DNA of 63,980 nt, filler included, from Reclinomonas americana ATCC 50394 (lineage: Eukaryota): assembly GCA_048213135.1 (NCBI GenBank). It is 6 parts of 3 records of this genome, joined end to end, with 100 filler letters (N's around TTAATTAATTAA, not from the genome) between each part and the next. Parts side by side here need not be neighbours in the genome. Positions count along the whole stretch, not along the records: positions 20,191 to 49,766 come from PS015097.1; 5 more parts are not named here. The stretch is one strand, 5' to 3'. A program made the translations under genes and the position numbers. Positions 8,114-49,872 of the stretch are shown piece after piece. Each line of letters opens with the position of its first letter. Positions within the stretch are counted from its first letter, which is position 1. The notes below the pieces were generated by a model. That model made no database searches. It was not told the origin of the DNA and saw only the letters and a list, made by a program, of their open reading frames with translations.

Positions 8114-8534
8114 GGGAGTCTGCACACATGCAGTCGTTTTCAACTCTGTGGAGTTGCACACACACACAGAGAGTGAGAGAGAGAGAGATAAAGCAAAGTG
8201 GGCGGTGAGTGCAGGGGAGCTCGAGTGTGTGAGAGAGAAAAGCAAACACTGATATCGATGATCATGACACAACACAACATCTCACCATTCGACATGCATC
8301 TGCACTGTTGAGAGACATGCATATGGCGAATGCTCACACGGAAGAGACGAAGCGAGAGCATCTGCGTGCTGATCGTCACACAAACTTACTGTAGACACTT
8401 GAAATTTTGCATTGTGCAGTCTCCTCACTCACTCATCCTCTCCTCCTCCTCCCTTATCCTCCTCCTCGGCATTCCTCTTGAATATCCGGCGGCGGGGGAC
8501 ACGAGTTGCTTCACAAAGCAACTCATTCTGTCCA

Positions 8535-8848
8535 TCAGTCATCATAATCTTCATCGGGCTCGCGATCGGATGCAAGGGGCAGATGCACCACATCAAAGAC
8601 GATCTCACGCTCGTCGGCCAGCGCGAAAAGCAGTTCCTGCTGCATGGGATCCATCTCGTCAGGAATCCTCAGTGTTCTGGAGCGTGGATACTCTTTGTAG
8701 CGACCCAGCTCCTCGTACGTGTCCACGACAAGGCGAGCCACTTCCACGTGGCTCTTGCCGGCGAGCAGCGGCATCTTGACGATGGTCTGGAACAACCGGA
8801 GGCCGCCGCTAGACTCGTCTTGCAAGTGGAGAGTCCAGCGACCAACAC
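8535..8848 (-). CDS. Array gene type B, 3' exon (truncated by scaffold end)
   Basis: LQDESSGGLRLFQTIVKMPLLAGKSHVEVARLVVDTYEELGRY...EPDEDYDD*. Confidence 0.65.
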
Positions 8849-8892
8849 NNNNNNNNNNNNNNNNNNNNNNNNNNNNNNNNNNNNNNNNNNNN

Positions 8893-8904
8893 TTAATTAA
8901 TTAA
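8893..8904. other. Artificial scaffold linker TTAATTAATTAA (also at 20135-20146, 49811-49822, 59553-59564, 62900-62911)
   Basis: Identical 12-mer with stops in all six frames, each flanked by short N runs of similar length. Confidence 0.97.
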
Positions 8905-9081
8905 NNNNNNNNNNNNNNNNNNNNNNNNNNNNNNNNNNNNNNNNNNNNCCTTTTACCCTTTTACCCTTCCTTCGTTGTCGTTCCTTCCTACCTACGTCGA
9001 CCACCTACCTCCCTTTCCCTTCCGTCCGTCCTACGTACGTACTACTACTCGTCTCCTTCCTACCCCACCCACCTACTACTA

Positions 9082-12895: not shown

Positions 12896-15800
12896 TTACT
12901 GCAAGTCACTGGGGCAGTGCAGCAGTTCTCGAATGGCCATGGTGGCGTAGCACGATGGGGCGAGGTTGAAAGACACGCGGAGAGCAGTGTACCGTCCATC
13001 TGTGCGAGCCAGATGAGAGAAGAAGAAAAACAACACAGGCGCCAGTGTTTTACAGAAACAAACCAGGCACGGATTGCGGTGGCGGCCGTCCCTCCAGCAC
13101 GTCCATGTCCGAGTGCGACAACTGCAGCGTCGGGTCATCGTACTGCACAAAGTCCCTGATCGTGCAGCGTTCAGTGACATCACATGCACGGCACTCGTCA
13201 CACGACCGGAACGTACCACGACATGTCGGTGGGCTTGGCCACCACCGGTCGGTAGCCACCAACGAGGCTGAATTCGCTACGGAAGCAAAAAAAACCATAC
13301 ATGGATAATTAGGGGGTGGCACACATGGACTGCAGGACTGCTGACAATACGCAACACCAAGTTGGTGCGGAAGAGCTCCAGCGTGACACCGTCACGTGCC
13401 AGGCGATCGACATACATGGCACCGATCTCGTTCTCCGGGAGGCGAATGTTGAAGCCGGGGAACGGCAGCACCACGTCCTCCAGCGTGTACTGATCGACAG
13501 TCTCGGCGGTCAACACAGTTACCTCAACAGCAGGCGCGGCGCCACCACTGCCGCTGCCGCTTGCTCCACTACTGTCTTCCTCATCGGCCGCTGCCGCTGC
13601 TGTTGCGACCGTTACCTCGGAAGCTTCCACGCCCTCCTCGGCGGCCAGCGTGGCCAGATCGTCGGCATCGGCGGCACTGCCACGCGACAAGACAAGGTCG
13701 CCGATCTACGAGTCGACAGTGAGCACCTCGACAACCAGCTGATCTCGGCAACAAAACGCGGACGCACCACTGGTCGGCGGCCAAATCGCTCGATGCGCTC
13801 GCTGCACATCTCGTTGAAGACCAGACTCTGGTACGCGTGCACAAAGATCATGCGTGTGCTGCGCATAATCTGTCCTTGCCCATCCCCACATTAGACGAGT
13901 AGAGAGACATGTGCATCACATCACCAGCGACGTAACTCGTGCGACTGCGTTCTGGTAGCCACGCGGCATTTGTTGCAGCGACGCCATGACAGCACGCTCG
14001 GAGATCATCTTTCGCGGCATCAACTTCATGGCTGGCGAAGGGCACATACAATGAGTGTTACGCGTTGCCAGCAAAACGAGGCGACGTACCCGTGTCCAGA
14101 TCGCCTCTGGCAAAAGCGTGACGAGCCGCCACTGCGTCGGCCACCACATCTGAACATGGATGGCATCACAGGTGAGGGAGCGGTGAGAACACTGCGATTC
14201 ACCACGGAGGCGCCGCGCACCGACTTGTCGAGGAGCCATCAGGAGTTCCACCGCCTGCTGCCAGTCGTGCTTGATCATGGCCAAGCCAATGGTGGCGTTG
14301 TTGACACTCGATGATCCGAATCTGGTCGACACGTCAGTGGAGAGAGTGCACGTACGACGGCTGCAAAACACATTGTGCAACCTCTGCAGTCCGTAGTAAT
14401 TGATAAAACCGTGCTCGGCGAGAGCGCGCAGGTTTGTCTCCACTTGCTCGTGCGGCGATTCGAGAGCACTGCAGCAGCAACAGTGAGCTTGCGGTACCCC
14501 TGCCCACACATCGATTGTCGCCCGCACCGTACAATGAGCTGGAAGCGATTGCCGCCGAGTTCGCCGAGTCGGATTTCACGATCGACAAATCTGCGCGTGC
14601 GCATGAGTGTGGCGATGTGCAATTGGAGCAAAGAGCGTGACTGTCGGTGGCGCAACTTGAAGTTTCCGACATGGAGCCAATTGAATCGCTCGGCAGCACG
14701 CAGTACGCGGCTGGGCCGGAGATGCATGGCGCGGACCTCCTGCACCGTGATACCGCGCTTATCCTTGGTGCCTGCGTACGACAAGTTCTTGGGCTGTATG
14801 CTGCGCGCATACGCGGAGAGATGAGTAACGTGTGCGATGCAGCAGATCGATTTTTCTCTCTGTCGAGTCGAACCTCAGTGCGCTCGCCAACATGGACACA
14901 GCTGCGGCCGTGTCGGTGTTGACTTTGAGCAGCCGGAAAGAGAGAAAGCGTGGCACACTCGCCGGCCACCTGTCGCGTGAGCGGTAATCGAGTGATGCGC
15001 CGGCGGCTGCACAGCGAGAGGTGAGAGTGGCTTCTCACAAGGCACATTCCAATAAGAGTACACACGCACCCTCTTCGTCCCGGCCACCTCTGCCGCCTCC
15101 GCGACCGCGTCCACGGCCACCACCACCACGGCCGCCACGGCCGCCACCACCAGCGCGTAGCGCAGCAGCCTTGGCCTGCACTCGCACAGCGCGGTCATCG
15201 CCGTCGACATGTGTGTCCGACACAAAGGCCGAGTGCCACTGTGTGCGACACGGACGAGTCAGCAGATGCACAGCAGATCGTAGTGCAACGACGAGCACCT
15301 TCTTGATGTGCCCGTGCACAGCGCTTCGCTTGTCTTTCGACGCCTCAGCCTGTGGCACCGGGGTGAGCAGCGGGTGAGGAAAATACAAAAAAAGCGGTCG
15401 CACTCGACGCACCGCAAACACAAAAATGTTGCTTGTACTCTCCGAGTCCCGGAGGAAGGATGCGAAACGCTGCGCCTCTTCGGCGCCCACAAGCTCCTGC
15501 AATTCGCCAGTCGCCGCTTCCGTGGAGTCTCCGGCGGCAGCCGGAACGGCTTCTCGCACGACAAACGCCGACTGCATGCCACCGATCCACGAATGAAAAA
15601 CAGAGAGCGCAGGACGAGCGATGAGTGTAGCACAAGACAGACCTCGTCGTAGCTATTGTCGGTGAGATGGAGTACGGTGCCGTCAAGTGCAATCTCGTTG
15701 ACCAGAAAGTCGGAGAATGTGAAGAACCAGTTGTCAAGGGCGAGCACAACAAACGAGTGGGCAACAACAGGAAAGAAAACACAAAGGATATCTGTCCTTG

Positions 15801-16099
15801 AGGAGGCCGTTCATGGGCGCGGCCTCTGGGTTGAGGAAGGCACGAATTCCACACGGGTCTTCGCCGAGCGGGTGCGTGCGACGGCGCGATGCCAGTGGCC
15901 CCACATCATTGGACTGAGCCAGCTGTGATGCAGAAGTCAGGAAGGAAAAATACACCATACGAGGGCTGCGGCGGTGTCCATGTACCTCGGAGTCGACAGC
16001 GGCTGCTGTGCGCTTGCGCGGTGGCTGCTCGACTTCGTCGTCCTCGGCAGCGGCACTGTCACGCTCTCGTTTTCTGCTGCTGCTGCCATCGACGTCCAT
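12896..16099 (-). CDS. PUS7: Pseudouridine synthase, TruD family
   Basis: Motifs GLLKDR/FSDFLVNEI, SYAGTKDKRGITVQ (catalytic Asp), LGELGGNRF, GFINYYGLQR/FG, FVHAYQSLVFN, DVVLPFPG, SCYATMAIRELL, joined by many short introns. Confidence 0.95.
15719..15791 (-). other. U12-type (minor spliceosome) AT-AC intron, 73 nt, in PUS7
   Basis: Minus strand: gacag|ATATCCTTTG...CCCTTGAC(14 nt ending AC)|attctcc. Removal restores KDR-FSDFLVNEI in frame. Confidence 0.93.
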
Positions 16100-16187
16100 C
16101 GCAGACTGATAACACCAATACTCATCAGCTACACTGCAGAAAAAAGAAGAAAAGAACAGAAAGAGATAGAGTGTGTGTACGTGCGCG

Positions 16188-17315
16188 CTACTCCACTGTC
16201 ATGCACTCGTGCAGCAGGCGCTCGACCAGGTTGAGCGGCAGGCCTTGAACCGAATCAATGGCGCCGTCGATTTCGCGCACGTACTCGCTCATTCGCGGAT
16301 GTTCGACAATGAAGCCGCCAGCAGTCGTCAGGAACTCGGGCAGATGCGCCTGCAGGGAGAGAGAGAGAGGTCAGCGGAAAAGAGATGCAAACAAACAACA
16401 AATGCTGCGCACCAGTTCCTGAATTCGGTCTTCCGGAATTTCTGACCAGTGCACCGTGGCCACGTCGACATCCTTGCAAATCTTGCCTGCTCTCCAGCGT
16501 CAGCAGCAGCAGCAGCAGCAAAAGAGAGGAAAGAAAAAAGTGGCAAAAGCATACAAGCACTGGGGCTTCCCAAGTGGTCCCCCACCCTAGTACTGACCCA
16601 GCTGAACGCGGCTTAACTTCACAGATCGGACGGGATGTGGTGTTTTCCGCGTCATGTGGCCGTATGCGACTGCTTGAGCGAAAGAGTGCACGGGGGGATT
16701 GCAGGAAGAGTGCAGGAAGAGTGCAGGAAAGAGAGCACAAATAGCCCACTCTGCGTGCCACACACACACACACACCAGTCTTGAGGTTGGAGGCGACCAC
16801 CGCCGAGAATGTTTGCACCGACGAGTTGGAGTAGGAGCTGCAACATGCGACAGTGAGCACACACACAACGCACAACAGCACAGAACACACACACACCGAA
16901 TGAACTCGACGGCCTCCTCCACGCTCTCGGGCTTCTCGCGCACCACGCCATTGTAGACAGTGACCTGGTCGCACGTGAGCAGCACCCAAGTGTCGGCCGA
17001 GTGCATGTACTTGTCGGCGTCGGCGGCCACCACCGTGCTCATGAGTCGCTCCCGCTTCGCCGAGGCAATCGTCAGCGGCAGCACATGCGGGTCGGCATTC
17101 TGGCGCAGCGCCGGGTCCTTCTCGTCAATGTTGGGGTCCATGGTCTCGTAGGTGCCTGAAAAGCGTGTGTCAGAGAGTGTGCATGCATGCATGTGCGTGT
17201 GCGTGTGTGAATGCACACCGGCGCCAAGCAGCTGGTTGAGAATGCTTTGCCGGAACTTGCTGGTGGAGCCGAGAATGATCTTGGCGCCATGGAAGGTGAC
17301 GAGAGAGGATGCCAT
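16188..17315 (-). CDS. maf: Maf-family nucleotide pyrophosphatase
   Basis: KIILGSTSKFRQSIL, PNIDEK, LLTCDQV..NGVVREKPES, AGGFIVEHP, DSVQGLP; five exons. Confidence 0.92.
16549..16667 (-). rRNA. 5S rRNA: 5S rRNA gene (119 nt), inside Maf intron 3
   Basis: Minus strand GCATACGGCCACATGACGCGGAAAACACCACATCCCGTCCGATCTGTGAAGTTAAGCCGCGTTCAGCTGGGTCAGTACTAGGGTGGGGGACCACTTGGGAAGCCCCAGTGCTTGTATGC, then TTTT. Conserved CCCGTCCGATC, AAGTTAAGC and AGTACT; helices I, II, IV and V pair. Confidence 0.95.
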
Positions 17316-17412
17316 TGGCGCAGCGCAGAGTTTTTATGAAATTGGTGAGTGCCACACAGGACGCGGCGTGCGCACTCTGCCTCTGCTGCCGCTGCTGCTC
17401 GCGAAGCGATGC

Positions 17413-17860
17413 TCACTTGCGCTTGTCCGAGTCCTTGACGGTCTGCGCGGGGGGCGCCAGCACCGCAAAGATGACGGCGAAGATCGTGCACAGAGCGCCC
17501 CACGCAATGTTCACTGCAAGACGACGGTGTGAGACACACGAAAGACAGCGACGTGAAGAGAAACAAGGCGCAACTCTGCGGGTCAAACATATTGGCATTG
17601 AAGAAGCAGTACGCCTGGGCGGCGGCGCCAATCAGCATTGAGCTGGCGGCAGCATGAGCAAAGGCCTGCGCAATTTGGTTCACCATGCACACAGTTAGTG
17701 GCACTTGCACAGAGCGAGCGTGAGAGGCATATGGAGGAACACTACGTGCGTGGGCTTGACGGAGAGAGGAGATCTAGGGGGAAGAAGACGTGCGCGGAGA
17801 ATTAGGTATCTCTCTCTTGCTCTTGCTTCTGTCGCTCTCCATTGCTGCACCAGCGCGCAC

Positions 17861-18077: not shown

Positions 18078-18379
18078 CAAGTCAGCAAGAATATGCACTG
18101 AAGAGAGACGGCATTCGACACGCAACTGAGTGAGAGCGAGCGCCGCGGTGACTTGCTCATCGGAAGCTCCCTCCGCGAGCAGCTTTGGCATGTGCACTGC
18201 CAGTGTGTGTGCGTGAGGGGGAGGGGGAGGGGGGAGGGTGGCAATTGCAAACCCTCTCTCAAATTCACACACAGCACCACGCAACATTCGACCACCGTAC
18301 GCGGTGCCGCGATGAAGAACACGCCAGTGGCGGTGTAGTAGGTGGAGAGGAAGAGCAGGAACACGCGACCAAAGCCCAT
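17413..18379 (-). CDS. Small ~4-TM membrane protein, paralogue 1
   Basis: Spliced MGFGRVFLLFLSTYYTATGVFFIAAPRTVVE/LHMPKLL.../SLGVLCIMLSGIF.../AFAHAAASSMLIG.../MNIAWGALCTIFAVIFAVLAPPAQTVKDSDKRK*; homologous to the adjacent gene. Confidence 0.75.
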
Positions 18380-18773
18380 GATGGATGTCAAGGAAAAATC
18401 GATCGATTGATGATGCCACAGGACAGAGTTTCGGGAGATGCGGGCACAAGCTCGATCCTGTGTTCTACAGGCACTCCCTGCCGCATCACCTTCCCGCGAA
18501 GTGCACTCGACAATGCATCAAATGTAAGAGCGACTTCACGACATCATGACAACACGCCTTTCCGAAGCCAGGCGACCACAGAAGCAGGTGCATGACGACC
18601 TCTGCCTTGAGGAACGAAGGTGAGGTTCCGGATTTGCGAGCAGGAGAAGGTACAGCGCGATCGATATCTCGCTCCTCCGAAGCTGAGCCAGCTGGCGAAT
18701 CCACGAGGCAAGGCAAGTCCTCATCAGAGGAGAGCTCCGCGAATTCGTGCAAGAGCGTTCCGCAGTCGTTTTA

Positions 18774-19449
18774 CTACTTGTGCTTGTCGGCATCCGGCAC
18801 CCGCCTGGACGGTGGTGCCAGCAGGAGCATCATGGTGGCACTCAGCACGAGCGACGCAGACCACGCCATGCCCGCTGTGGGTGGACACAAACACTTGACA
18901 AAGCATGCAGCACAACAACAACAAAACATGCAGATGCACACCTGTCGTGTTCACAGTGGCGGCGTTCTTGAGCGTGGAGACCGCCAGCGCAGCAGCGAGA
19001 AGCATCAGCGAGACAGCACCAGCGCGTGCAAAAGGCTGCGGAACAACACACACACACATCAGACAGCATCTCGCACACAAGCGCATACACAGAACACGCG
19101 TAACTCGTGAGGGTGTCGCCGACCAGAGCACCGCCGAGACAAAGAACAACACCACGCCAATCGATCTGCCAGTCATCGATCAATTCACGCGCATTTGCTC
19201 TTCTTTTTTCTGCGTTCCTCACGCAACTGCACCAAGGCAACAGCACCACGAATCTGCTCACTCACTGCAGTCGCGTCCACCAGCCGCGGCATGTGCACTT
19301 CATGCGCAGAGAAGTGTGAGACAACAAGGCATAGTAATGTGGAGCAAATAACAGACGCAACAGTCCAGCATGAACCGCGGTGCAAACACGCACAGTGCGC
19401 CCACGCAAGTGAAGGCCGTGGAGAGCAAGAGGAGGAACGCCCGAGACAT
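18774..19449 (-). CDS. Small ~4-TM membrane protein, paralogue 2
   Basis: MSRAFLLLLSTAFTCVGALCVFAPRFMLD/LHMPRLV.../SIGVVLFFVSAVLWSATPSR/PFARAGAVSLMLL.../AGMAWSASLVLSATMMLLLAPPSRRVPDADKHK*; same four intron positions as paralogue 1. Confidence 0.75.
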
Positions 19450-20090: not shown

Positions 20091-20271
20091 NNNNNNNNNN
20101 NNNNNNNNNNNNNNNNNNNNNNNNNNNNNNNNNNTTAATTAATTAANNNNNNNNNNNNNNNNNNNNNNNNNNNNNNNNNNNNNNNNNNNNTCCCTCTTGT
20201 GATGCTCTTTGTAACGATCTTGAGTCAGTGACGTGCTTCCATTTCTTTCTCTCACGATTGTTCTTCTGCAG

Positions 20272-23200
20272 GCTGCCGCTGGAGCTGGAATGTGTATCCG
20301 GCTTCACGCGTGGAGAGCCAGCGACTGGTGAGTGGAAAAGAAGATGACACACACACACATAGAGGGAGAGAGAGAGAGAGAGCTTCCTCTACGCGCCTTT
20401 CCCCTTCAATCCCCTTTCCTCACCAAACCCACGATCACCAGGTTGTCCCCTTGGCGTGCCTGTACACGCCCAAGAAGGAGATTCCGAACCTGCCGGCGCT
20501 GCCGTATGGTGTGTCGCCCTCCAAGCTGTTTCTCGCCAGTTGTTCCAGTCGTGCTCACACAGCTTTGAATCACAGAGCCTGTGTGCTGCCGCAGCTGCGC
20601 CAGCAAGCTGTCGCCCTACTGGTGCGTGTTGTCGGACCGACTCGCAGCTGCGCATGGTGCCTGACCCTCTCTCACGAACACAGCCGCGTGGAACTGGCCT
20701 CCAAGACGTGGACGTGCCCCTTCTGCACCACTCGCAACCAGTTCCCGCCGCACTATGGTGAGTGCTTCCCGTGCATGCACCTGTTGCCAAAACGGAAGCT
20801 GACCACCGCCATCGTGCACAGCGAACATCTCAGAGACGCAGCTGCCGGCGGAGCTGTTCCCGCAGTACACCACCATTGAGTACACGCTGCAGACGAGCCC
20901 GCAGGTGACAAGATTTGTTTTTTATTTTCGCTCTCGGATGCCCTATCTCACCCCTCCCTCTCCCTTCCCTTTCGACCCCACAGCCACCGGTTGTGCTCTT
21001 TGTGATCGACCTGTGCATGCCGGAGGAGGAGCTGAAGGCCGTGAAGGACTCGATCCTGCAGTCGGTCAACCTGCTGCCGCCGCACTTTTTGGTCGGCCTC
21101 ATCACATTCGGCACGTTTATCAACGTGTATGAGCTCTCGTACACCGAGTGCTTCAAGTCGTACTGCTTCCGTGGCAACCAGGAGTTTACGGCGGAGCAGC
21201 TGCAGGAGACGCTGCAGTTGCTGGCTGCACCGGCGCACGGACTGGCCATTCCCAACCGGTGAGCGAGTGCCTTTCTCCTTTCTCCCTCTCCCCTCCTCCC
21301 CTCCTCCACCCTCCTCTCTCTCTCTCTTCTCTAAATTTTCCCTCTCGCAGATTTGTGCAACCGTGGAACGCTCCCGACGTCGATGTGACTCTGTCGTCGA
21401 TTCTGGAGGAGTTGTCGCCCGACCCGTGGCCGGTGAAGCACAACAACCGTGCTCACCGCTGCACTGGTGCCGCGCTGTCGCTGGCCATTAACCTGCTGGA
21501 GCTGACTTGCGTCGGCTCGGGCGGCAAGATCATGCTGTTCCTGGGCGGCCCGTGCACGGCTGGACCCGGCACTGTGGTTGGTGAGTGCACTATCATCATC
21601 ATCATCACATCGGCGCGCGCCATTTGCACCTTTCACTCACTCACGCATTCTTGGGGGCAGGCATTCCGTTCACGGAGCAGATGCGTTCGTACAACGACAT
21701 CAACAAGGGTCGTGCGCAGTACATGGCCAAGGCCACCAAGTACTACGAGGGCCTGGCGGAGAAGTGCATTCGCAACTGCCACTCGGTGGACGTGTACTCG
21801 GCCAGTTTCGATCAGGTCGGTCTGCTCGAGCTGCGCGATCTCGTGCACAACTCTGGCGGCTACATGTACACCACTGAGGAGTTCAACTCGGACTGCTTCC
21901 GCAAGGTACGCCTCACGACGATCACTGCAAATGGACGGGCGTGTGTATCACTCATAATTGTGCGCAGACCATGGAGCGCGTGTTTGCGCAAAACGCCCAG
22001 TACGAGCTGACCATGGGCTTCAACGGCCTGGTGGAGGTGCAGACGAGCTCCGAGTGGAAGATCTCCGGCGCCATTGGCCCGTGCGTCAGCATGCGCAAGG
22101 CGTCGCCGAGTGTCGGCGACTTGGAGATTGGCGAGGGCAAGACGTGTGCGTGGCGCGTGTGCGGGCTCGCCCAAGACACCACGCTGGGCATCTATTTTGA
22201 AGTCGTCAGCCAGGTTGGTCTCTTGGCGAGCATCGTGTCCCTGTTTCGCGATACTAATTACCCTTCCCTTGCCCTTTTCTTCCTCCACTGCAGCACAATG
22301 CCCCGCTGCCACCCGACGCGCAGCGTTTCATCCAGTTCAGCACCGTGTACCAGCACTCATCGGGCCAGCGTCGCCTGCGCGTGACCACCTTGGCCTACCG
22401 CTGGGGCTCCACCGACCACATGGCGGACCTGGTGACTGGATTTGACCAGTACGCCTCGATTGCGCTCATGGCGCGCATGGCGGTGGAGAAGACGAAGCAC
22501 GAGCCGACCATGGACATTTTGCGCTGGCTCGATCGCAACCTCATTCGTCTCATGGCGCGCGTGGCCGAGTACGAGAAGGATGCGCCGCAGACGTTCCGCT
22601 TGTCGCCCATGTTCCTGCTGTTCCCGCAGTTCATGTTCCACTTGCGCCGCTCGCCGTTCCTCCAAGTGTTCAACCACTCGCCCGACGAGACCACCTTCCA
22701 CCGTTGCATCTTGATGCGCGAGAACGCCCGCAACACGGCCATGATGATCCAGCCGCACCTGCGCAAGTTCTCGTTCAAGGGTCCGCCCGAGTCGGTGCCG
22801 CTCGACGCCGCCTCGATTGAGCACGACGCCATTTTGCTCCTCGACACCTACTTCCACGTGGTGGTCTTCCACGGCGATGTGCGTAGCAGTTGAAAGTGGC
22901 TTTCACTTGCTCTCGTGCGGCGAGCTGACCTGAGTTGTTTACCTTTCTCTGTTTGTCGCACAACAGACGATTGCGCAGTGGTTCAAGGAGAAGCTGCAGG
23001 ATCGGCCCGAGTACGAGCACTTCCGCAAGCTGCTGGGTCACCCGGAGGCCGAGGGCATGAAGCTGCTGGAGAACCGCTTCCCGCGCCCGCGCTTTGTGAC
23101 ATGCGCGCAAGGGTCGAGCCAGGCCCGTCTCCTGACGTCCAAGCTCAACCCCAGCATCACGCACAAGAACATGGGCGGCGTGCAGTCGGGAGCCGGCGAG

Positions 23201-23272
23201 GTCATCATGACGGATGATGTGTCGCTGCAGGTGTTTATGGAGCGCCTGGTGCAGCTGGCGGTGCAGCAGTAG
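20272..23272 (+). CDS. SEC23: COPII coat subunit Sec23 (5' end missing)
   Basis: RWSWNVYP, zinc finger CRSC...WTCPFC..RNQFPPHY, LFVIDLC, RCTGAAL, FLGGPCTAGPG, GFDQYAS, FPQFMFHLRRSPFLQVFN, GSSQARLL, TDDVSLQVFM. Confidence 0.97.
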
Positions 23273-23921: not shown

Positions 23922-25039
23922 TCAGTGGATTGAGGCGCGGTACGACGCCACCAGCGACTGCACAATGCGGTTCGGCACCAGCGTCGCGTCCGTCAGCGGC
24001 TCACGCGTCACTGGAGAAACTTGGTTCGACGACAGCCTATCACGAGAAACAACAAAGTCAGAAGTCAAGCGAGAATATGAAAAGGCCACGACAATGCACG
24101 CAACCACTCAGTAATGGCGGAGCGCTCGTACGTGTTGCCATCCTGTGCCACCACCGGGTCCTCGAACAGCAAGTTACTGATTGGACAGACGAGTGCGCGT
24201 GGAGGCTCGCTCGATTTGTGCGGCGCGAACCACAGCCCGCCTGCATGCCAACAAGCCGCGCGGTGTTAGCATCATCACAGAGAGAGGGAGAGAGAGAGAG
24301 CAGAGAGGAAAAGGGGGGCGCACCATCACGAGCGCCTGCCTCATCGGGCAACAACAGTTCGGCGGCAAATAACATGATCTTGCGCCGATCGCCAAACACG
24401 TGGATGCCGAGGTCTTTGAGATCGCCGTCGCTAAGCGTCTTCAAGATGCGCACATCATCAATGCCATTGGCCTTGAAGAGATCCTGGTAGCGATCGAGGC
24501 GACACGAACGAAGCCAACGAGACACTTCGTTCTGTGACTCGCCGGCATTGGGGACGGCTGCCGACGCGGTCCCACCGGCGGCACCACTGCCTGGCGCCGT
24601 CGACAAGCCGCTGCCGAGGGTCATCGCAGAGGGCGTGCCAAAGAACAGGCTGCTGCCCTGCTCCGAGTCGGAGCCAAAATGTTCAAACTACACAACAGAC
24701 AACATCAGGTGAGACGACTCAACCCCTCGTCCTTCTCGCACACACATGCGCCCACGTACCAACGACGGTGCCACAGACTCGCGGACCGAATGGCCGTTGG
24801 AGAGGCCGCCGGTGGCGTCGAACAGTGAGAACTGACGGAACGCCTCCTCAAAGTCCAACGAGTCGCCGAGGCTGGCGGGCGCTGGCGCAGGGCGCGGCAC
24901 CACAGGCGAGTTGACGGCCGAACCCATGCCATTTGACGCCAACAGGCCCAAGGTCGTCTGCGGCGGCGAGCCCGCGCTGCCCATGGTGGTCAGCGGCGAG
25001 GCAGACGGGTCGACCACTGTCGGCGGTGGTTGCTGCTGC

Positions 25040-27701: not shown

Positions 27702-30700
27702 ATGGCAGCGTCTTCTCGTCCGAATCAACTGCAGTTTGACTTGTCCCCGGCCGACTTGGCCACACGGTTCGTTCCACCACACCATTCTTGTTGCTGTTTC
27801 CTTGCGTTTTCATGTGGATGATGAATGGGTGTGGGTGTGTGTATGCGGGATCCAGTGCCGATGCTCTGATTGAGCACATGCGCGGGCTTATTGACTCGGT
27901 GGTGGCGACGCCAGTGGGCGAGCGCTCGTTTGCTAATGTGGTCGAGCGATTGGCACTGGCCGAGGGTCACTGGGAGACTCGTTGCGCGCGTTGCACATGA
28001 CACCTTTGTGTGTGTGTTTTGGTGTGTCACTCACTGATGGAGGCACAGAGAGCTCTAATCTGACCTTCTTGTCATATGTCTCCGAGTTGCGCTTTCCGTC
28101 GTTGTTGTCTGACCACGACAACCGCCCCACTGATTGCTCGAGAGTGTGCGTGCGCGTAGGGACAAGGATGTGCGCGATGCGTCGACCGAGGCCAACAAGA
28201 AGCTGGAGGCGTTTGAGATTGAGAGCGACATGCGAGTGGATGTGTATGAGGCGCTGAACGAGGTCAACGAGAAGGTCGCCAGTGGCGCCGAGAAGCTGGC
28301 TGATGAGTTGCAGGCGCGCTTGTTGGAGCACATGGTGCGACAGAAGCGACGCAACGGTCTGCACTTGCCGGTCGAGGTGCGCCAGCAGGTCAAGGAGCTG
28401 AAGACGGAGCTGAGTGAGCTGCAAATCTCGTTTGAGCGCAATCTGGCCGAGGACAAGACCGAGCTGCAGTTCAGCGAGGAGGAGCTGGCCGGTGAGACGC
28501 AATCATTGTTGTACGTCACGGCCGCCTCCGTTGTGAGGCTCACGTGTGCACAGGTGTCGATCCGGGCCTGCTCAGCACGCTGAAGAAGGACGAGAGCAAC
28601 GGCAAGCTGATTCTGACGCTAAAGGTGATTGCCTGGCAATCCAGTGTATGTGTGTGTGTGTGTGGCTATGTTTGTGTTCCTCACTCCGTGTGGCGTGCGC
28701 AGTACCCGCACTACTTCCCGGTGCTGAAAAAGTGCCGCGTCGAGGCCACTCGTCGGACAATGGAGCGCGCCTACTCAATGCGTTGCCAGGAGGTCAATGT
28801 CGGCATTCTCGAGCGCATTCTGAGCCTGCGCCAGAGTTTTGTGGCAGTGGCTCCACTGTGTGTTTTCCGCATTGTGACTGACTCGAGTGCGTGCGCATTT
28901 GCAGAGTTGGCCGAGCTGCTGGGTTACAAGACTCATGGTATGTGTATCACTCCCTCATCCTCACCCTGTACGCTCCCCTCACTCTCGTCTTACAATTGTG
29001 CAGCGCACTACCAGCTGGAGATTCGGTTCGTGCAGTGTGTCAAGGAGTGAGTTGATGTTGCGATGTGCTGACTTGCTCTCTCCTTTTGCTTCCCCGTTGC
29101 AGCATGGCCAAGGTAAACAACGATCGTGCTTTGTAAATCATAATTCACAACTCACCCTCGAGTCGCACAGACGCCCGAGACAGTGATGGAGTTCCTGTAC
29201 GATCTGCGCGAGCGCCTGGACGGCAAGGCGCACGAGGATCTGGCAGGCCTGCTCGAGTTGAAGCGAGCGTTGCGTCGATCGAATGTGCCTTGTGAGTTTC
29301 GCGTTTGTTCACGATTGAAACAACAGAGAGAAGGAGGCTGCCGGCGAGGCGTTTGAGCCTGACCTGAACGCGTGGGACTTCCAGTACTACCACACCATGC
29401 TGCTGGAGCGCAAGTACCAGGTGTGCATCTTGCTGTAGTTTTCTTGTCGAAGAGAGAGAGAGAGTTCTTCGGTATTCAACGCGTGTTCGTGCAGGTTGAC
29501 CACGACAAAATCAAGCAGTACTTCCCCGCCGACCGTGTGTTGCGTGCGCTGTGTCCTTCTGACATCTACTCCGAATCTGCTGAGCTCTGCTGATTCATTG
29601 CTGACAATGAGCGTGCATGCGTGCAGCATCACGCACGTGCTGAAGCTGTACGAGACGCTGCTGTCGCTGCGCTTTGTGGAGTTGCCGGAGGGTGAGCGCC
29701 ACACGTGGCACAAGGATGTGAGCCAGTTCGCAGTGTACGATCAGGCGTCGGATGCGCTGATTGGCCACTTTTACCTTGACCTGTTGCGTGATTTTTGAAC
29801 CAACAACCGAACGTATTGTCTTTCTTTGTTGACGCATTGTCGTAGGTGGCCTCGCGAGGGCAAGTTTGGTCATGCCGCCGCCTTCCCGCTCGTGTGCGGT
29901 CATCGCCTTGCCTGTTGCGTTGCATATGAAGGGAGATGGCTTGCATGTCGACAATGTCCACTCACACTCACGTGTCGCAGCTGGTGAATTCGAGAAGCCC
30001 GCCTCCGCCATGGTGTGCAACTTCAATCCGCCCGGTGCCGACGGCGTGTCGCTGTTGAAGCACGACGAGGTTGTTACCTTCTGCCACGAACTTGGCCACG
30101 TGTTCCACGGTGTGTGCAGCACCTCGCCGTACGCTCGCTTCTCGGGCACGCGTGTGGAGCGCGACTTTGTCGGTGCGTTGTTGTAGATGTTGTGCACGTG
30201 TGGTTGACGATTTGTGTGCTGAAAAAATAGCGCGTGCACAGAGGCACCGTCTCAGATGATGGAAAACTGGTGAGTGTGGGGGAAACTACGTGTTGTCTCG
30301 GTGTCCAGCCATTCACTTATCTGCTGGTGACGGTGCAGGTGCTGGCAACCCGAATTTTTGGTGCGTTATCGACTCCATCATTTCTGCTTGTTGTTCACTT
30401 TCTCACACCTTTCCACGTGATGGCGCAGCGCGAGGTCTCGGGCCTGTACTCGAACCGCGAAGAGAAGCTGCCGGAGGATCTTCTGCACAGCTTGATTGCC
30501 GCCAAGCACGTCAACGACGGCCTCCTCTACCGTCGCCAGCTGTTCTTTGGTATCTTTGGTGAGTGGCGAGCGATATTCTTGCATACAGGTGGGTGTGCGA
30601 CGACTCACGTATCCAAAATCGCCTGTGCGGGCACAGACATGACGATTCATTATCTCCACTGGGCGGTCTGTGCACACTGGATCGCAACGGCCTGTGCATT

Positions 30701-31467
30701 TGATTGACTCTCTGCGTGTGCGCTGACAGGATCGCGACTCAACGGCACCGCCGCCCAACACGGAGGAAGTGTGGGCCTCTCTGCGCAAATCGGTACACCA
30801 ACAGAGTGTGTCCTGCTCTGAAATCGAGTGCTGAACATTTTCATCGCAGGTCACCCTCATGAACCACTCTGTCGGCACGAACCCGTCCGGTGAGCGGTAA
30901 ACATTTCTGCTTGTGGTTAAGTGCGCTGTGCTCATTCTTCTTCTTCTCTATCCAGCTGGTTTTGGTCACATGATGGGCTACTCGGCCGGGTGAGTGGCCT
31001 GTCGATATAGTCGTTGTCTTTTTCTCCATCATTCTGACCTGATTCTATGTGCACAGCTACTACGGGTGTGACTTTCTCTGTGGATTCGTGCGTCGGAGTT
31101 TTGTAGTCTCACTTGTGTTGTCACAGCTACGCGTACGCGGAGATGGCATGCTGCGACATGTTTGCGCAGTTCAAGCGCGCTGGCGTCATGAATCAAGAGC
31201 GTTGCGTGCCGCACAGTCGATGTCTTCTTGCTTCGTCCGCCCTCGCTCATCGTTTCGGTGGGTGGCAGTGGGTCGTCGATACCGCGAGACTCTGCTCTGC
31301 AAGGGTCATTGCAAGGATGCTGCCGACTTGCTGCACGAGTTGCGCCCTCCTTTACTGTGTTTTTGAATTGTCGCACTGTGCAGGTGCTCATTGCGCTCCG
31401 TGGCAGCTTCTTGGGTCGCGCGGTGGCGCCGGACGCGTTCCTGGAGGAGCTCGGCATTGCCAAGTGA
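27702..31467 (+). CDS. THOP1: Thimet oligopeptidase/neurolysin (peptidase M3A); 25 introns by manual splicing
   Basis: [35 protein letters not shown] (HEXXH), [39 protein letters not shown]...DAFL. Confidence 0.95.
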
Positions 31468-31599: not shown

Positions 31600-34500
31600 T
31601 TACGCCCAAATGTCGCGCTGGTAGTGGCCGGTGGTGGTGAGAGTTATCAGGTACTGACTGGCCTCGTCGCGGTCCATGTTGGCATGGTCGATGAGCATGC
31701 TGACGAGGATGCGATGCACGTCCTTGACCATCGAGTTGGCATCACTGCGTGGCGAAGAGTGAGACGCGTGTGCGTGCGCGGTCGTAGAGCAACAGGAAGA
31801 AATCACACATCGACGCACCCGCACACATAGACAGTGGCGTTTTGCTTGGTGAGCATGTTGACCAGCACTTCGCCGTCCTCGCGCATCAGATCCTGCACGT
31901 AGGCGCCGCCGTACCACATGCCGTCGACAGGTTCGCGCGAGAAGGCCGCGCGCAGTTCGGTCAACACGCCTTCGGTCTTGTACGTTGCCAAGTCGTCGCG
32001 GTAGATAAAGTCCAAGTCGCGACGGCGGCAGCCAAAGTACAGCCACGAGGGGCCGAAAGAGCGCACGGCACCCGAGCTCTTGAGAGCCAGCCGGTGCTCG
32101 AGGAATCCACGGAAGGGCGCCACACCGGTGCCGGGGCCCACCATGATGATGGGTGCCAGCGGGTCTTTTGGCAGGCGGAATTCAACAGTGGCGCGTCGGA
32201 ACACGGGCAGCTGCATCTGCACCGATTGATCGCAGAGAGAGAGAGAGAGAGAGAGTGAGTGAGTGAGAGAGTGGGAGAGTGAGTGGGAGAGAGTGAGAGA
32301 CAACTGAGTGCGGACAGAGACGGGTGAACAGATTGTGACAGTACATGCATATATGTGTATGTGTGAGTGCGTGTGTGTGTGTGTGTACACAAACCACAGG
32401 CGCAGCGCGATTCGCATCGGCAGCATCAATGAGACTGTCGGCGATACCGCCCAACCAAGAGGTGCAAAGACCGACACGCTGGCGGCGACGCGGCAACTCG
32501 GTCTCGTACTGCACGGCGGAGAAGCAGAGGTGCACCATTCCCGGGGAGCGCAGCAGGCTCGACGCCACCGAGTAGTAGCGCGGCTGTTGCAGAGGTACCA
32601 CCTCCAAGAGATGTTCAAGTGGCGGGAAGCATGTCGGCACCTCCTCCAGCACCTCCAGCAGCGTCGATTGTCCACATCGCACATGCTGTCGATACTCGCG
32701 CTCTCCCTGCGGCGAGCACCAGTGCAGCAGGCGCTGCCGATCATTGCTCGACGCGCAATACTCTGCCATCACGCGCAGCAGCGAACGCGTGACCGTGCGT
32801 AGATCATAGATGTGCGTAAACAGATCCTCCACACACCAGGGCGTGGTCAAGTGCTGCAAGACAGCACACCGACTCAGCGCTCCGTTGCTGCCGACGCGAT
32901 GCAGTGGGCCTGGGCGACCGTGATTACCCGCGGTGGCGGCGGCAGTGGCAGCTGCCGCAGCAGCTGCAGTGGTGGTCACGGACTCGAGCACCGGCAGCGC
33001 ATCGTAGGAGACGGTAGAGACAAGCAGAGGTCCCGTCGAATACGGAAACGGAGATTCGTCGGCACCCGGCGACGGTGACGGAGTCCACGATGGAGCATAA
33101 CACAAGCCGCCGCCACCGCCACTGCCACTACTACTGCCGCCAAAGCCGGCAGTTCCGTCACCACTGCCGCAGCCGCCCTCAGCAGCACACTCATCCACAT
33201 CGTCCACACACTCACCACCGTCGTCGAGCGGAACCACCGACACCACATCCTGCGGCTCGTAATGCAAGCGCCGCAACACAGCCAACACCTCACTGCGCGG
33301 ATTGGGACACAAGACGCCAATCGCATCACCCGGCTCGTATTGCACACCGGCCTTGGCCACCGACAGCTCCATGTGGATCACACGACGGTCGCCCTTGACG
33401 AGAACCTTTGCCGACTGCACATCGGCCAGTGCCGGCGCCTCTGCACTGTAGTCCTCCCCTTCGTGTCGGCGAATGGCCGCGAGACGCTCCTCCCACGTCG
33501 GCAAGTCACTCGGCTGAATGAGTTCGTGCCGCACCAGACGATGCCGACACGGACGCAGGCGCATCCACACTCCCGCCGAAGTGACTGTGGCCAGCGAGGT
33601 GGCCGCCGTGGTCGGCGCCTTGCCTCCGGTGAAACTGGCGGGCGACGGCGGCAAGCGTGGCGGATCGGCTAGCACCACATCGATGACGGCGGGGTTGCGT
33701 GTCGTCTCACGTAGTGGTGAGGGACCACCGGGGGTGACCGCTGGTGAGCTCTTCAACGCTGGCGACACCTGCGGCGATATTTGTGGCGACGATTGGGCAG
33801 AGTTGCGAGCGCGACGAGCCAGCGATTTCCACACGGCACGAGACCACGGCTCGACCACCAGCTCCAAGCTAACAACAAATCACACAGGGTGAGGGTGACT
33901 GCGGCCGGGGCGAGGAGGGGAAGAGAGAGTGTGCGACGCACCCCACAGCGTCGTCGGCAAGACCGATTTCATGAAACTGGTGAGCGCCGAGCTCCAGGAA
34001 ACGCTTGTTGAAGTTCCGACCGGCGGCACAAAAGTTGGTGTAATTTGAGTCGCCAAGAGCTGCAATTCGTTCACCGCCACCACCACCATCATCATCATCA
34101 GCGAACAAGAATAGAAGGCAAACCCCCCCATTCTCTCTGGAGACGCACCCAGCACCGAGTAGCTGCAGTTCTCCAGATAGTTGGGCGGCAGTGCACGCGA
34201 GCGGAGCTTGCGCATAAACTGCAAGGCGTTGTCAGGCGGATCGCCATCGCCAGTCGTCGACACCACCATGACGACAAACTGTTCGCGCTGGAGTGCCTCC
34301 TGTCGGGGAGGTGCATGGGGAAGTGTGTGCGTGTGAGCCACCAGAGGATTGACTGATGCAGAGTATCAGTCACACGCCAAGAGAGAAGGAGCAATCACGC
34401 GCTGTGACTACGGATGACGACCACAGACAACAGAGAGTCCAGTGGGAAAAAAGAGAGCACACGTGCGCGCGTGTGTGCGTGTGTGACAGAGAGAGGAGCA

Positions 34501-34751
34501 CGGGAGGAGCATGTCGCGCACACTCTCTCTCTCAATGAAGCACGCCAATCGGCACAAGAGAAGACGGAGTGGGAGAGAGGGAGGAGAGAAGAGCATGCGT
34601 GTGTGCATCCGAGCAACGCAACAAGCGCGCAATCATTCATGCATTGCAGCTCGGGCTCGTGACCGCTCTCTGTGGCCAGCAGGCACACTTGTCGGGCAAT
34701 CTCCTCGGCGTTGCCTGTCTGCGAGCCGAAGAGAACCAGCACGCGAACCAT
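31600..34751 (-). CDS. MTRR: Methionine synthase reductase (diflavin reductase)
   Basis: FGSQTGNAEEIA, STTGDGDPPDNA, LGDSNYTNFC, GLADDAVG/LELVVEPW (MTRR-like), QPRYYSVASS, MVGPGTGVAPFRGFL, LYFGCRRRDLDFIY, YQRDIWA*. Confidence 0.9.
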
Positions 34752-34836: not shown

Positions 34837-37829
<2,993 letters not shown>

Positions 37830-44328: not shown

Positions 44329-47300
44329 NNNNNNNNNNNNNNNNNNNNNNNNNNNNNNNNNNNNNNNNNNNNNNNNNNNNNNNNNNNNNNNNNNNNNNNN
44401 NNNNNNNNNNNNNNNNNNNNNNNNNNNNNNNNNNNNNNNNNNNNNNNNNNNNNNNNNNNNNNNNNNNNNNNNNNNNNNNNNNNNNNNNNNNNNNNNNNNN
44501 NNNNNNNNNNNNNNNNNNNNNNNNNNNNNNNNNNNNNNNNNNNNNNNNNNNNNNNNNNNNNNNNNNNNNNNNNNNNNNNNNNNNNNNNNNNNNNNNNNNN
44601 NNNNNNNNNNNNNNNNNNNNNNNNNNNNNNNNNNNNNNNNNNNNNNNNNNNNNNNNNNNNNNNNNNNNNNNNNNNNNNNNNNNNNNNNNNNNNNNNNNNN
44701 NNNNNNNNNNNNNNNNNNNNNNNNNNNNNNNNNNNNNNNNNNNNNNNNNNNNNNNNNNNNNNNNNNNNNNNNNNNNNNNNNNNNNNNNNNNCTTCCTCTT
44801 CTTTGTTGTTGTGCTTTTGCCTCTTCCCCTCTCACTTTCTCCATCTGTCCGTCTGCATGTTTCTGCCTTCTCTCTGCCTTCCTCTCGCCTGCCTCACTGT
44901 CTCTTCCTCTCTGTCTCTCTCTTTCTCTCTCCTTCTTTCTTTTGCCCTTCTCTCTCGCCTGTCTCACTGTCTCTTCCTCTCTGTCTCTTTCTCTCTCTCC
45001 TTCTTTCTTTGCCATTTTCTCTCTCTCGCCCTCTCTTTCGCTCTTTGTCTCTAATTCTATCCCTTTCCCTCGCCCTGCTCCCTCCCTTTCCGCTCTCTCT
45101 CTGCCTTCGACGGACAACTCACACGTCCTGCGCCCCACCACTCTCCCTCTACACTCACAGAGAATGTGCCTCCGACAATCACCGGCTTCACCCCCTCCAC
45201 CAACCCGGTCAAGGTCCCTGTCGCCGGCCTGGCTGCCGGCGTTGCTGTGGGCGCGCTGAACCTCTCCGACGCCAACACCTCGCAAGGGCCGTGGAAGGTG
45301 CAACTCACTGCCGGCTCCGCCAACAACTCGTACTTCCAACTGGAGGGCGCCGACGACAACGGGCAAGTGTCGGTGACCACCATCACTACACCGGTGTCGG
45401 TGAAGGTGGCGACTGGCGGCCTGGCCTGGAACACACTCGTCTCCTCGGCTTCCTTGGCGGTGCGCCTGACCGACTTGACCCCGAGCACCGTGACCCAAAC
45501 GACCATTGTCGGACCGAGCTCGTCGGCCACTCCCTACGTGATCCCGGTGACGGTGGCCAGTCGACCGCTGACCATCGTCAGCTTGCTCACCACCACCAAT
45601 GCCGTGCCGGCGGTTGGCGGCGGCACCTACAACTTTGTCGGTGTTCCCGACGGTCTCGGCGCTCTCGACAACGGCGACGGCACCTTCACTGTGCTGGTGA
45701 ACCACGAGATCAGTAACACGGCAGGTGTCACGCGTGCGCACGGTGCTGTCGGCGCGTTCACCTCCAGATTCGTCATCAGCAAGAGCACGCTGCAAGTGCA
45801 GAGCGGCGAGGACCTGATCAAGAGCATCTACGGGTGGAACACGACGACTCAAGCCTCCAACGCCACCACCTCGACCATCGCTCTCAATCGTCTGTGTTCT
45901 GCCGATCTGTCGCCCGTCTCGGCCTACTACAACTCCGCCACCGGTCTCGGTACCACCGCGCGCATCTTCATGCACGGCGAGGAGGCTGGCACGACGGGCT
46001 CTCTCCTCGGCACCGTGGTCACTGGCGCCGACGCCGGCAAGAGCTACATTCTCGGCAAGTTCAACCTCAGCACCAACGGCTCTGGCCTGACTGGAGTGGG
46101 CGCGTGGGAAAACGCCCTTGCCAATCCGTACATGCAAGACAAGACGATTGTCATTGGCAATCACGACGGTGGCACGGGCATCATGAGCAACTCCATCACG
46201 GTCTACGTCGGCACCAAGACCAACACTGGCTCCGAAGTCAACAAGGCCGGCCTCATGAACGGCATCGCCAAATTTGTCGTTGTCACCGGCAACACGGCGG
46301 AGATCGTCAACACCACGACTCGTGCGACCAACATCACCAACGGCACGCGTTTCAGTTTGAGTGCAACCTCATCGACCACGTTTTCGCGGCCGGAAGACGG
46401 AGCGTGGAACCCGGCCAATCCGAAGCAGTACTACTTTGCCACCACCGATCGAATCGATCAGGTGACGGATGCTGTCGGAAGCCAAGTCGGTAGATCCCGC
46501 CTCTGGCGCCTGACATTCGACGACCTGGCGAATCCAGATGCCGGTGGCACGATTGATATGCTCATCAATGGTACCACTGGCACCAATATGTTGGACAACA
46601 TGGCCGTGATGGCCGACGGCACTCTGCTCCTTCTCGAAGACACCGGCAACGCCGCACACAACAACAAGATGTGGCGCTACGACCCGGCCACCGACACTCT
46701 CACGATGATTGCCAAACATGATCCGGCTCGCTTCGGTGACATTGGTGTGGCGCCGACGTCTCCCTTCAACGTCGACGAGGAGATGTCGGGAGTCATCGAC
46801 GTGTCGGATATTCTGGGAGCGGACGACGGATATCAGTACTTCCTGTTTACCGACCAGGCCCACTACATTATTTCTAACCCCAGCTATGCTGTCGAAGGCG
46901 GCCAGCTGCTGCTTGGCAAGACTCCGAAGACGTCGTCGTCCACGACGACTGGCACGTCCGTGGATGCCACGCTCTCATTCGCCGGTACGTGCTTCTGTTT
47001 TCTGATAATGTTCTAGCGCGAGTGTTCATCATTGTGCACCAGTGAACAACGCCCCGACCGCTCCCACGGTGTCGCCGACTACCTTCCAAGTCGGCGCAGC
47101 TCCAGGGTCTACTGTGGCCACAATTTCCAGCAGTGACCCGGAGAACGACGCCATCACGTTCGCACTCAGTGGCACGGACGCCAACCTGTTCCTGCTTGAT
47201 GTCAATCAAATCAAGGTCGCCAGTTCTGCACTGACCAGCGGCAACAAGAGTATCACCGTCACTGCTAGCACTGCAGGGCAGCAGTCGACAAGTGCCAACA

Positions 47301-48270
47301 TCACGTTGACGGCGACTGGGGGTGGTGGTGGTGAGTATGCGTATTTTTGCTTGGAAGCATTCTTCATCCCACCCACACCTTGCATCGTGCGTGTACAGCC
47401 ACTGGAGGTTCTACTTCCGGCTCCACCTGCTCCGCCACCCCCCATGGGTCGAAGCAAATCTGGTGGTCCGTCGCCTCCAACAGCGACGGCACCAAACTGG
47501 TGGCCGTGGTCGAGTTCGGTCGCATCTACACCTCCACCGACTCGGGCACGACGTGGACGCCCCACGAGTCGGATCGTTACTGGGTCAGCGTGGCCTCCAG
47601 CGCCGATGGCACCAAGTTGGTGGCCTGTGTGTACTGCAACGGCAACATCTACACCTCGGCCGACTCGGGGGCGACGTGGACGGCCCGCGGGCCACTGCAG
47701 GCGTGGTCAGCGGTGGCCTCCAGCGCCGACGGCACGAAGCTGGTGGCTGTAGCCATCAGTGACTACATCTACACCTCCACCGATGCTGGCGCGACCTGGA
47801 CGTCGCACGAGTCGAACCGGCAGTGGGTCGCGGTGGCCTCCAGCGCCGACGGCACCAAGTTGGTGGCGGCGGTGCGCGACGGTGCGATCTACACGTCGGC
47901 CGACGCTGGTGCAACATGGACAGCACGCGACTCCAACCGTCCGTGGGTGGCGGTGGCCTCGAGCAGCAATGGTGTGAAGCTGGTGGCTGTGACTGACGGT
48001 GGCCAGATTTACACCTCGGCTGATGCTGGTGCGACGTGGGTGGCTCGCGAGTCGGCGCGTCAGTGGCGGTCGGTGGCCTCGAGCAGCGATGGCTCCAAGC
48101 TGGTGGCTGTCGCCGGTCAAGACAAGGTGTACACGTCGAGTGACTCGGGCGCGACGTGGACGGCTCGCGACTCGAATCGCAACTGGTTCGCCGTGGCCTC
48201 CAACGCCGACGGCTCCAAGGTGGTGGCGAGTGTGTACGACGGTCGCCTGTACACGCTGGCGGGCTGCTAG
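43398..48270 (+). CDS. Putative secreted/surface mosaic protein: hydrophobic leader, cadherin-like repeats, PhoX-like phosphatase domain, Asp-box/BNR-type propeller
   Basis: Exons 43398-43442, 43574-43640, 43719-43790, 43874-44152, (gap), 45161-46984, 47043-47330, 47399-48270. Cadherin-like VGTITATDADGDALTYTLSG and SDPENDAITFALSG; PhoX-like PDGLG...VNHE, LCSA, GEE, WENA, RPEDG, LDNM, LLEDTG, EMSG; seven ~40-aa WxxVASSADGTKLVA repeats, six with the full IYTSxDxGxTW Asp-box tail. Confidence 0.85.
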
Positions 48271-49629: not shown

Positions 49630-49872
49630 TGTTGTTGTTGTGTGTGTGTCGTCGTCTCTTCTTCGTTGTTGTTGTTGTGTGTTCGCGAGAGTGTCGTCGT
49701 GTGTGTCGTCGTCGTCGTTACGTACGTACGTTTACGGTTTTGGTTGGTACGTACGTCGTCGGTCGGNNNNNNNNNNNNNNNNNNNNNNNNNNNNNNNNNN
49801 NNNNNNNNNNTTAATTAATTAANNNNNNNNNNNNNNNNNNNNNNNNNNNNNNNNNNNNNNNNNNNNACACGC

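Follow-up and report, generated by a model that had tools for sequence, protein, structure and literature searches.

U12-type introns carry a /RUAUCCUU donor and a UCCUUAAC branch site near the 3′ end. PMC11732430 describes a seesaw between two major kinds of 5′ splice site, AG//GUNNN as opposed to NN//GURAG, and in that paper and PMC11842720 the sites are split into 'left-handed' and 'right-handed' types. PMC9803359 is a further source on this division. Human sites read in a noncanonical register account for some 2% of donors, and their A-rich cores pair with U1 small nuclear RNA (snRNA) (PMC4856993). Variant U1 snRNAs (e.g. human vU1) are described in PMC3561869 and PMC10870369 as products of extra U1 genes with altered 5′ ends that could read other donors. 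Here we compare with these systems the splice donors found in a window of 63,980 nucleotides (nt) of the Reclinomonas americana ATCC 50394 genome assembly (GCA_048213135.1), above all those of a gene for an M3 (thimet-type) oligopeptidase. The organism has two kinds of GT-AG donor, an exon-anchored class 1 and an intron-anchored class 2. In class 1 a loose GURNGU-like sequence comes after G|GU, and the class bears the imprint of the canonical U1 5′ end; class 2 has the consensus GUUGCGY. The ordinary (class-1) donors need a G at the last exon position (−1), and class 2 makes no demand on that base.

The supported set comprises 52 introns from five genes in the window. It holds 38 ordinary donors, 37 of which follow G, and 14 class-2 donors (27% of the introns), 13 of which follow another base (Fisher p = 3e-10). 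Class 2 has U at +3 in 14/14 donors, C at +5 in 13/14 (T in the other) and G at +6 in 14/14; of the two canonical contacts, −1G is missing in 13/14 and +5G in all 14. Intron length, branch motif and acceptor are shared, and therefore both classes look like U2-type introns that differ only in recognition of the 5′ end. In the oligopeptidase gene the median lengths are 67.5 (class 1) and 68 nt (class 2), the branch motif YU[CG]AY is present in 16/16 class-1 and 9/9 class-2 introns, and the acceptor is CAG in 16/16 class-1 introns and CAG (7) or TAG (2) in class 2.

This arrangement resembles the seesaw in that an exon-anchored class needing −1G stands beside an intron-anchored class not needing it, and the two features rarely co-occur (37/38 versus 1/14). 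It departs from the published scheme in that the intron-anchored class is //GUUGCGY (G at +6 and not at +5, invariant U at +3, C at +5) and not //GURAG, that the normal non-G//GURAGU type is nearly absent (1/38, at 22879), and that strong GUGAGU donors of the ordinary class still keep −1G. The tie to −1G is the well-known seesaw, and the novelty lies in the GUUGCGY form of the intron-anchored class, its misfit to canonical U1 and the near absence of non-G//GURAGU. As in the shifted (+1) or bulged human sites of PMC4856993, GU is cleaved without −1G or +5G and the conserved G lies one base further in, as if a U were inserted after GU. Unlike those sites, class 2 makes up about 27% of supported introns, has the core GCG and shows no predicted pairing with canonical U1 in any register. 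U12-type introns and U11 offer a precedent for a second sharply conserved donor consensus beside the major one and for a separate guide RNA, but the class-2 donor is not /RUAUCCUU, and in branch motif, length and acceptor class-2 introns match class-1 introns. No published description of a GTTGCG/GUUGCG splice donor was found in the literature (full text, supplementary files aside), including work on donor classes and U1 in protists.

The oligopeptidase gene has an extreme intron density, with 25 introns per coding sequence (CDS) of 2040 nt, which after removal of the introns is in frame and free of internal stops. Its −1 bases separate the classes completely: 16/16 ordinary donors follow G and 9/9 class-2 donors follow A, C or T (Fisher p = 4.9e-7). 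The nine consist of eight GTTGCG and one GTTTTG, with G at +6 in all. A first-pass annotation of the window had described these 25 introns with 16 donors after G and nine after non-G with +6 G, and we confirm that structure; the motif and the −1 base that it gave are present at every one of its 26 listed coordinates. Junctions were checked against seven full-length M3 homologs carrying the HExxH exon, using a purpose-written spliced aligner that allowed GT-AG and GC-AG introns in all phases. The homologs back eight of the nine class-2 junctions, and in a second alignment run, in which GC donors were priced equal to GT, the majority choice was unchanged at the same number (8/9). The ambiguous donor, at 29269, lies in a weakly conserved stretch and loses to a GC...GAG alternative chosen by 5/7 homologs at equal GC price. 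The gene also contains micro-exons, three of them consecutive (33, 22 and 10 nt) and one of 9 nt (28905-29170 and 31057-31126, plus strand).

The first-pass annotation had proposed that GTTGCG donors serve exons whose last base is other than G. A frequent, sharply defined second class linked to the −1 base is borne out, but the dependence lies elsewhere, in that class 2 is indifferent to −1 and it is the ordinary donors that need G. Its rule that the donors outside the oligopeptidase gene all follow non-G amounts to no more than chance for the motif: in the window, a G stands before 21-24% of GT, 15-16% of GTT and 9% of GTTGC occurrences, and against these backgrounds the depletion of −1G in class 2 is insignificant (P(≤2 G of 31) = 0.17-0.46). 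For the ordinary donors of the same test, 28/29 of which follow G, the probability is 1e-14 or smaller under any background tried. We regard class 2 as indifferent to −1 because the background of G before the motif is only 9-15% and because the G|GTTGCG donor at 24104, which had been listed as an exception, is real, with a continuous U-box motif across the junction. The other listed exception, at 22879 (GAT|GTGCGT, an ordinary donor after T), is also real and is picked in 10/10 alignments with Sec23 homologs. A crude count across the window agrees with this: there, where 'intron-like' means a motif with a downstream branch motif and YAG whatever the −1 base, strong ordinary hexamers had −1G in 31/66 intron-like sites versus 23/159 others, and GTT[GA]CG[TC] had −1G in 1/23 intron-like sites versus 3/22 others.

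The class-2 motif also functions as a signal. The sense strand of the four verified pre-mRNAs contains 14 copies of GTT[GA]CG, 12 of which are donors (the antisense strand contains 10 copies), and the two non-donor copies have A or G at +7, one of them within an intron. The full heptamer, GTT[GA]CG[CT], is therefore a donor in 12/12 sense-strand cases in these genes, which argues for a present-day function and for selection against stray copies.

Pairing was assessed between donors (−4 to +10) and the canonical U1 5′ end (ACUUACCUG), in the 11-mer form printed in PMC4856993, with RNAduplex, allowing bulges and internal loops. Class 1 gave a mean of −6.8 kcal/mol, always in register 0, compared with −3.2 kcal/mol for decoy GT sites and −1.4 kcal/mol for class 2. 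Measured against 469 non-donor sense-strand GTs from two verified genes, class 1 reached an area under the curve (AUC) of 0.91 and class 2 one of 0.34. U1 offset by +1 pairs in only 5/14 class-2 sites, a stable duplex forms in no register, and none of the registers with a one-base bulge returned by RNAduplex had a useful energy for class 2. In a scan of all 16,384 7-mer guides, the best for class 1 were CUUACC(C/U/G) and ACUUACC, which correspond to the canonical U1 5′ end, and judging from this imprint an ordinary U1 is therefore very likely present in the organism. The best guides for class 2 were CGUAAC(A/U). When one guide had to serve both classes, (C)GUAACC or GCAACC came out best, with a poorer fit to class 1 than the canonical one gives. 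A hypothetical ACGCAAC guide pairs with class 2 at −10.1 kcal/mol versus −4.8 kcal/mol for decoys (AUC 0.93).

Because class 2 is unpaired with canonical U1 and has a fixed C, a dedicated CGC-containing partner is favoured over routine shifted or bulged pairing. Our leading reading, which we hold tentatively and at somewhat less than an even chance, is that class 2 may be read by such a dedicated complement, a predicted guide, and by canonical U1 in no register. Most simply, the complement would be a second U1-type snRNA or a U1 paralog with a 5′ end like ACG(C/U)AAC. A guide of this type would pair with GUUGCGU as a continuous 7-bp helix, and cleavage would remain at the first GU of the donor. 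The −1G seesaw could then reflect the extent of pairing: with little pairing on the intron side the contact between −1G and C9 would be needed, and with a full intron-side helix it would not. Stated in its widest form, this would add to U1 and U11 a third way of recognising 5′ splice sites, in which a dedicated U1-like snRNA complementary to GUUGCGU serves about a quarter of otherwise U2-type introns freed from −1G; so broad a claim, drawn from sequence, is possible but doubtful.

Several points weigh against a dedicated guide. To our knowledge no variant U1 serves a large defined intron class, and no natural second U1 is known to serve a quarter of introns. The 5′ end of U1 is among the most conserved eukaryotic RNA sequences. 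A scan of the window with Rfam (gathering threshold; E≤1) returned only a 5S rRNA and weak miRNA-like matches, and no snRNA. Nearest-neighbour energies take no account of U1C, LUC7 and U1-70K, by which weak duplexes are stabilised, and some class-1 donors pair weakly too (G|GUACAC, −4.3 kcal/mol; G|GUUGCA, −4.2 kcal/mol). The sample is small, at 52 supported introns from five genes of a single 64-kb window, and the gene models derive from homology, profile and reading-frame evidence. The contrast between the classes is weaker in the noisy ab initio set outside the oligopeptidase gene, whose models picked donors on intronic positions only (47 G versus 33 non-G in class 1; 2 G versus 12 non-G in class 2). 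Finally, the invariance of +3 U, +6 G and +7 Y and the indifference to −1 do follow from a shifted register without any added component.

That shifted register is the core of the alternative that survives best, which we place on the unlikely side: ordinary U1, and later U6, would read class 2 either one base out of register or with a bulge at the +3 U. In the shifted form +1G would replace −1G opposite C9, +3U would replace +2U, and +6G and +7U would replace +5G and +6U, with cleavage still at the only GU. Positions +4 to +9 of class 2 do resemble +3 to +8 of class 1, +5 apart, and the invariant positions and dispensable −1G are as this scheme predicts. The nearly obligatory −1G of class 1 suggests that the C9 contact matters, and rare human sites are proven to use shifted and bulged registers (PMC4856993). 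The scheme also predicts, however, A at +5 of class 2, where it would pair with pseudouridine 5, and many GUUGAGU or GUUAAGU donors, whereas A is seen in 0/14 and C in 13/14. The base composition at +4 of class 1 (C 19, A 12, T 5, G 2) differs from that at the equivalent +5 of class 2 (C 13, T 1; Fisher p = 0.008), and GTT[GA]AG[TC], the best shifted-register sites for canonical U1, number eight in the window with two intron-like. A bulged helix should need −1G more, yet −1G is unenriched in class 2. The suggestion in the first-pass annotation of routine shifted or bulged U1 pairing is not supported by these results, since canonical U1 forms no stable class-2 duplex in any register and binds class 2 more weakly than decoys; its other suggestion, a variant snRNA or dedicated factor, is now the better option.

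A second alternative, which we judge slightly less likely again, is that class 2 is recognised first mainly without snRNA pairing, through a putative UUGCG-binding protein (LUC7/U1C-type or other) or a U1-independent choice driven by U6/U5, so that class 2 would represent the form that the intron-side ('right-handed', U6-type) class takes in this lineage. PMC11732430 and PMC11842720 tie the architecture of AG//GUNNN and NN//GURAG to U5/U6 and to LUC7 paralogs, and class 2 lacks complementarity to canonical U1. The fixed C inside GCG fits a protein or a G-containing partner better than U1 or the U6 ACAGA box, and by inspection rather than computation GUUGCG pairs with U6 ACAGAGA in no register, which speaks against U6 itself. 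Also against this reading, a near-invariant motif of seven positions is typical of RNA-RNA pairing.

It is very improbable that class 2 is the relic of a mobile 'introner' family ending in GTTGCG whose insertion site produced the −1 pattern. The extreme intron density does suggest massive intron gain, and the motif is unusually uniform, but class-2 introns are no more similar internally (mean local alignment score 8.6, versus 7.7 and 7.9 for other pairs), target-site duplications are absent (left slide ambiguity 0 in 9/9; no flanking direct repeats in 35 introns of two genes), and the heptamer marks donors in every sense-strand case. Class-1 introns all show a trivial one-base slide ambiguity, G|GT...AG|. 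Next to negligible is the chance that the class is an artefact of misplaced junctions (such as GC-AG introns 3 nt downstream, GTT|GCG) or of wrong gene models, for although 29269 is ambiguous, most class-2 donors withstand equal GT/GC cost, FYLDL/WPREGK at 29783 leaves no room for an extra residue (7/7), the reading frames are stop-free, and profile and structure coordinates independently back junctions in a pseudouridine synthase gene described below. Three specific readings were rejected. A GC-AG re-parse as GTT|GCG found the GC site at +3 chosen by 1/7 homologs at two donors and by 0/7 elsewhere at equal GT/GC cost. A U12-type assignment does not fit a GUUGCGY donor, nor a branch motif that class 2 shares with class 1. 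A sequencing insertion of T, rejected by argument, would neither track the −1 base nor recur at about 30 sites.

The genes and class-2 donors are collected in Table 1. The order of the Pus7/TruD-type pseudouridine synthase model was checked by TruD profile and PUS7 structure matches, and its junction at 14381 was placed by the motif YYGLQRFG. The nine class-1 donors of this gene have the open reading frame (ORF) model as their basis, with no multi-homolog alignment, and its uncertain donor at 15289 (C|GTTGCAC) was excluded from the counts. The class-2 intron at 14591-14656 (minus strand) is stop-free: its retention would add 22 residues and leave the ORF intact, and the ab initio model read through it. 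A homolog search with the Pus7 exon query, which still carried this unspliced in-frame intron, found none at E≤0.001.

Table 1. Genes and class-2 donors of the supported models and related sites in the window (lower case, −1 base).
Feature	Coordinates	Strand	Structure	Support
M3 (thimet-type) oligopeptidase gene	27702..31467	+	26 exons; 25 GT-AG introns of 57-89 nt; 16 class-1 and 9 class-2 donors	ORF and spliced alignment of 7 homologs
Oligopeptidase class-2 donor	27981..27987	+	c|GTTGCGC	6/7 homologs
Oligopeptidase class-2 donor	28086..28092	+	a|GTTGCGC	7/7 homologs
Oligopeptidase class-2-like donor	28836..28842	+	a|GTTTTGT, with +6 G but lacking +5 C	7/7 homologs
Oligopeptidase class-2 donor, ambiguous by homology	29269..29275	+	c|GTTGCGT	3/7 homologs (2/7 at equal GC price); ORF closure with CAG acceptor and branch motif
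Oligopeptidase class-2 donor	29539..29545	+	t|GTTGCGT	7/7 homologs
Oligopeptidase class-2 donor, at FYLDL/WPREGK	29783..29789	+	t|GTTGCGT	7/7 homologs
Oligopeptidase class-2 donor	29914..29920	+	t|GTTGCGT	6/7 homologs (5/7 at equal GC price)
Oligopeptidase class-2 donor	31201..31207	+	c|GTTGCGT	5/7 homologs; GC donor 3 nt downstream, 1/7
Oligopeptidase class-2 donor	31339..31345	+	a|GTTGCGC	6/7 homologs
Sec23 gene	20271..23269	+	10 introns, every donor class 1 (−1 base G in 9, T in 1); CDS in frame, stop-free	Each junction picked by 7-10/10 homologs
Pus7/TruD-type pseudouridine synthase gene	13053..15577	-	14 exons; 9 class-1 donors after G, 3 class-2, 1 uncertain	Stop-free complete ORF
Pus7 class-2 donor of 66-nt in-frame intron (14591-14656)	14650..14656	-	a|GTTGCGC	Yeast Pus7 residues and Pfam TruD profile positions contiguous once 22 codons removed
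Pus7 class-2 donor	13930..13936	-	a|GTTACGT	TruD profile 226-254, then 259-284; extrapolated 255/256 at junction
Pus7 class-2 donor	13349..13355	-	t|GTTGCGT	ORF continuity in 14-exon Pus7 model only
Diflavin reductase (NDOR1-like) gene	31606-34748	-	Consistent G|GTGCGT donors at three junctions; remaining junctions scattered	8-10/10 homologs at the three solid junctions
NDOR1-like class-2 donor	34616..34622	-	t|GTTGCGT	Picked by 4/10 homologs; acceptors vary
U-box gene donor, class-2 motif after G	24098..24104	-	g|GTTGCGT (G|GTTGCGTG); 68-nt intron	U-box continuity ...ERSAITEW^LSSNQVSPVT; branch motif; TAG acceptor

For the remaining 13 of the 17 extra donors listed outside the oligopeptidase gene, the motif is present and candidate introns come from ab initio models only. 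Those at 10079, 19104, 19227 and 62242 have the motif alone, without even an ab initio intron model, and those at 18126-19361 (minus strand) lie in a hydrophobic, weakly coding region without a convincing gene model. Further H|GTTGCG(C/T) candidates were chosen by the ab initio models at 43502 (plus strand), 58060 and 63759 (both minus strand). These models come from a donor-neutral chain finder that recovered 20/25 oligopeptidase introns; over the whole window it ran genes and strands together, self-training made it worse, and its output serves as a noisy side count only.

The window is eukaryotic sequence of about 56% G+C. It is a chain of separate contigs joined by five identical spacers, N44-TTAATTAATTAA-N44, with stops in all six frames (8849-8948, 20091-20190, 49767-49866, 59509-59608 and 62856-62955), and therefore genes on either side of a spacer need not be linked. 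The spacers are often bordered by (CT)n or (GA)n runs, and larger N gaps are found at 1049-1969, 4679-5547, 35846-36138, 44329-44791 and 61040-61948.

A 5S rRNA gene (16548-16667, minus strand, 103 bits) lies within an ab initio Maf-like gene model (15794-17638) on the same strand, and the predicted 'introns' at 16597 and 16769 in that model are probably artefacts of its crossing the rRNA gene. The adjoining gene copies at 2068-4602 and 5896-8774 (minus strand) are apparent paralogs whose N-gap edges are similar in sequence. They share the donor contexts TCG|GTTAGCGG at 4328/7220 and TTG|GTGAGTCG at 3396/7664, and their comparison could throw light on donor evolution. On the plus strand, amid intron-dense sequence, stand two long ORFs almost free of introns, one of 618 aa (45130-46983) and one of 265 aa (47470-48264) that consists of ...VASSADGTKLVA...IYTS.D.GATW... 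repeats. No Pfam family matched the overlapping ORF 45166-47013, and the two ORFs are possibly foreign or recently acquired. The palindromic low-complexity stretch at 35393-35489 (GTAC/GGTC-type repeats), with weak sub-threshold matches to miRNA precursors on both strands, is most likely a simple hairpin-forming repeat.

How a 5′ splice site is chosen is still debated between U1 pairing, U5/U6 interactions and LUC7-type proteins, and this genome offers a potential natural experiment. Roughly one donor in four has a motif of high information content that is invisible to canonical U1, and the others bear canonical U1's clean imprint along with a nearly absolute −1G. Gene finders trained on GTRAGT-type donors would miss about a quarter of the introns here. 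Should a matching variant snRNA exist, it would show the major spliceosome to be capable of evolving a second guide for the 5′ site; should there be none, class 2 would constitute a large natural set of donors independent of U1 pairing.

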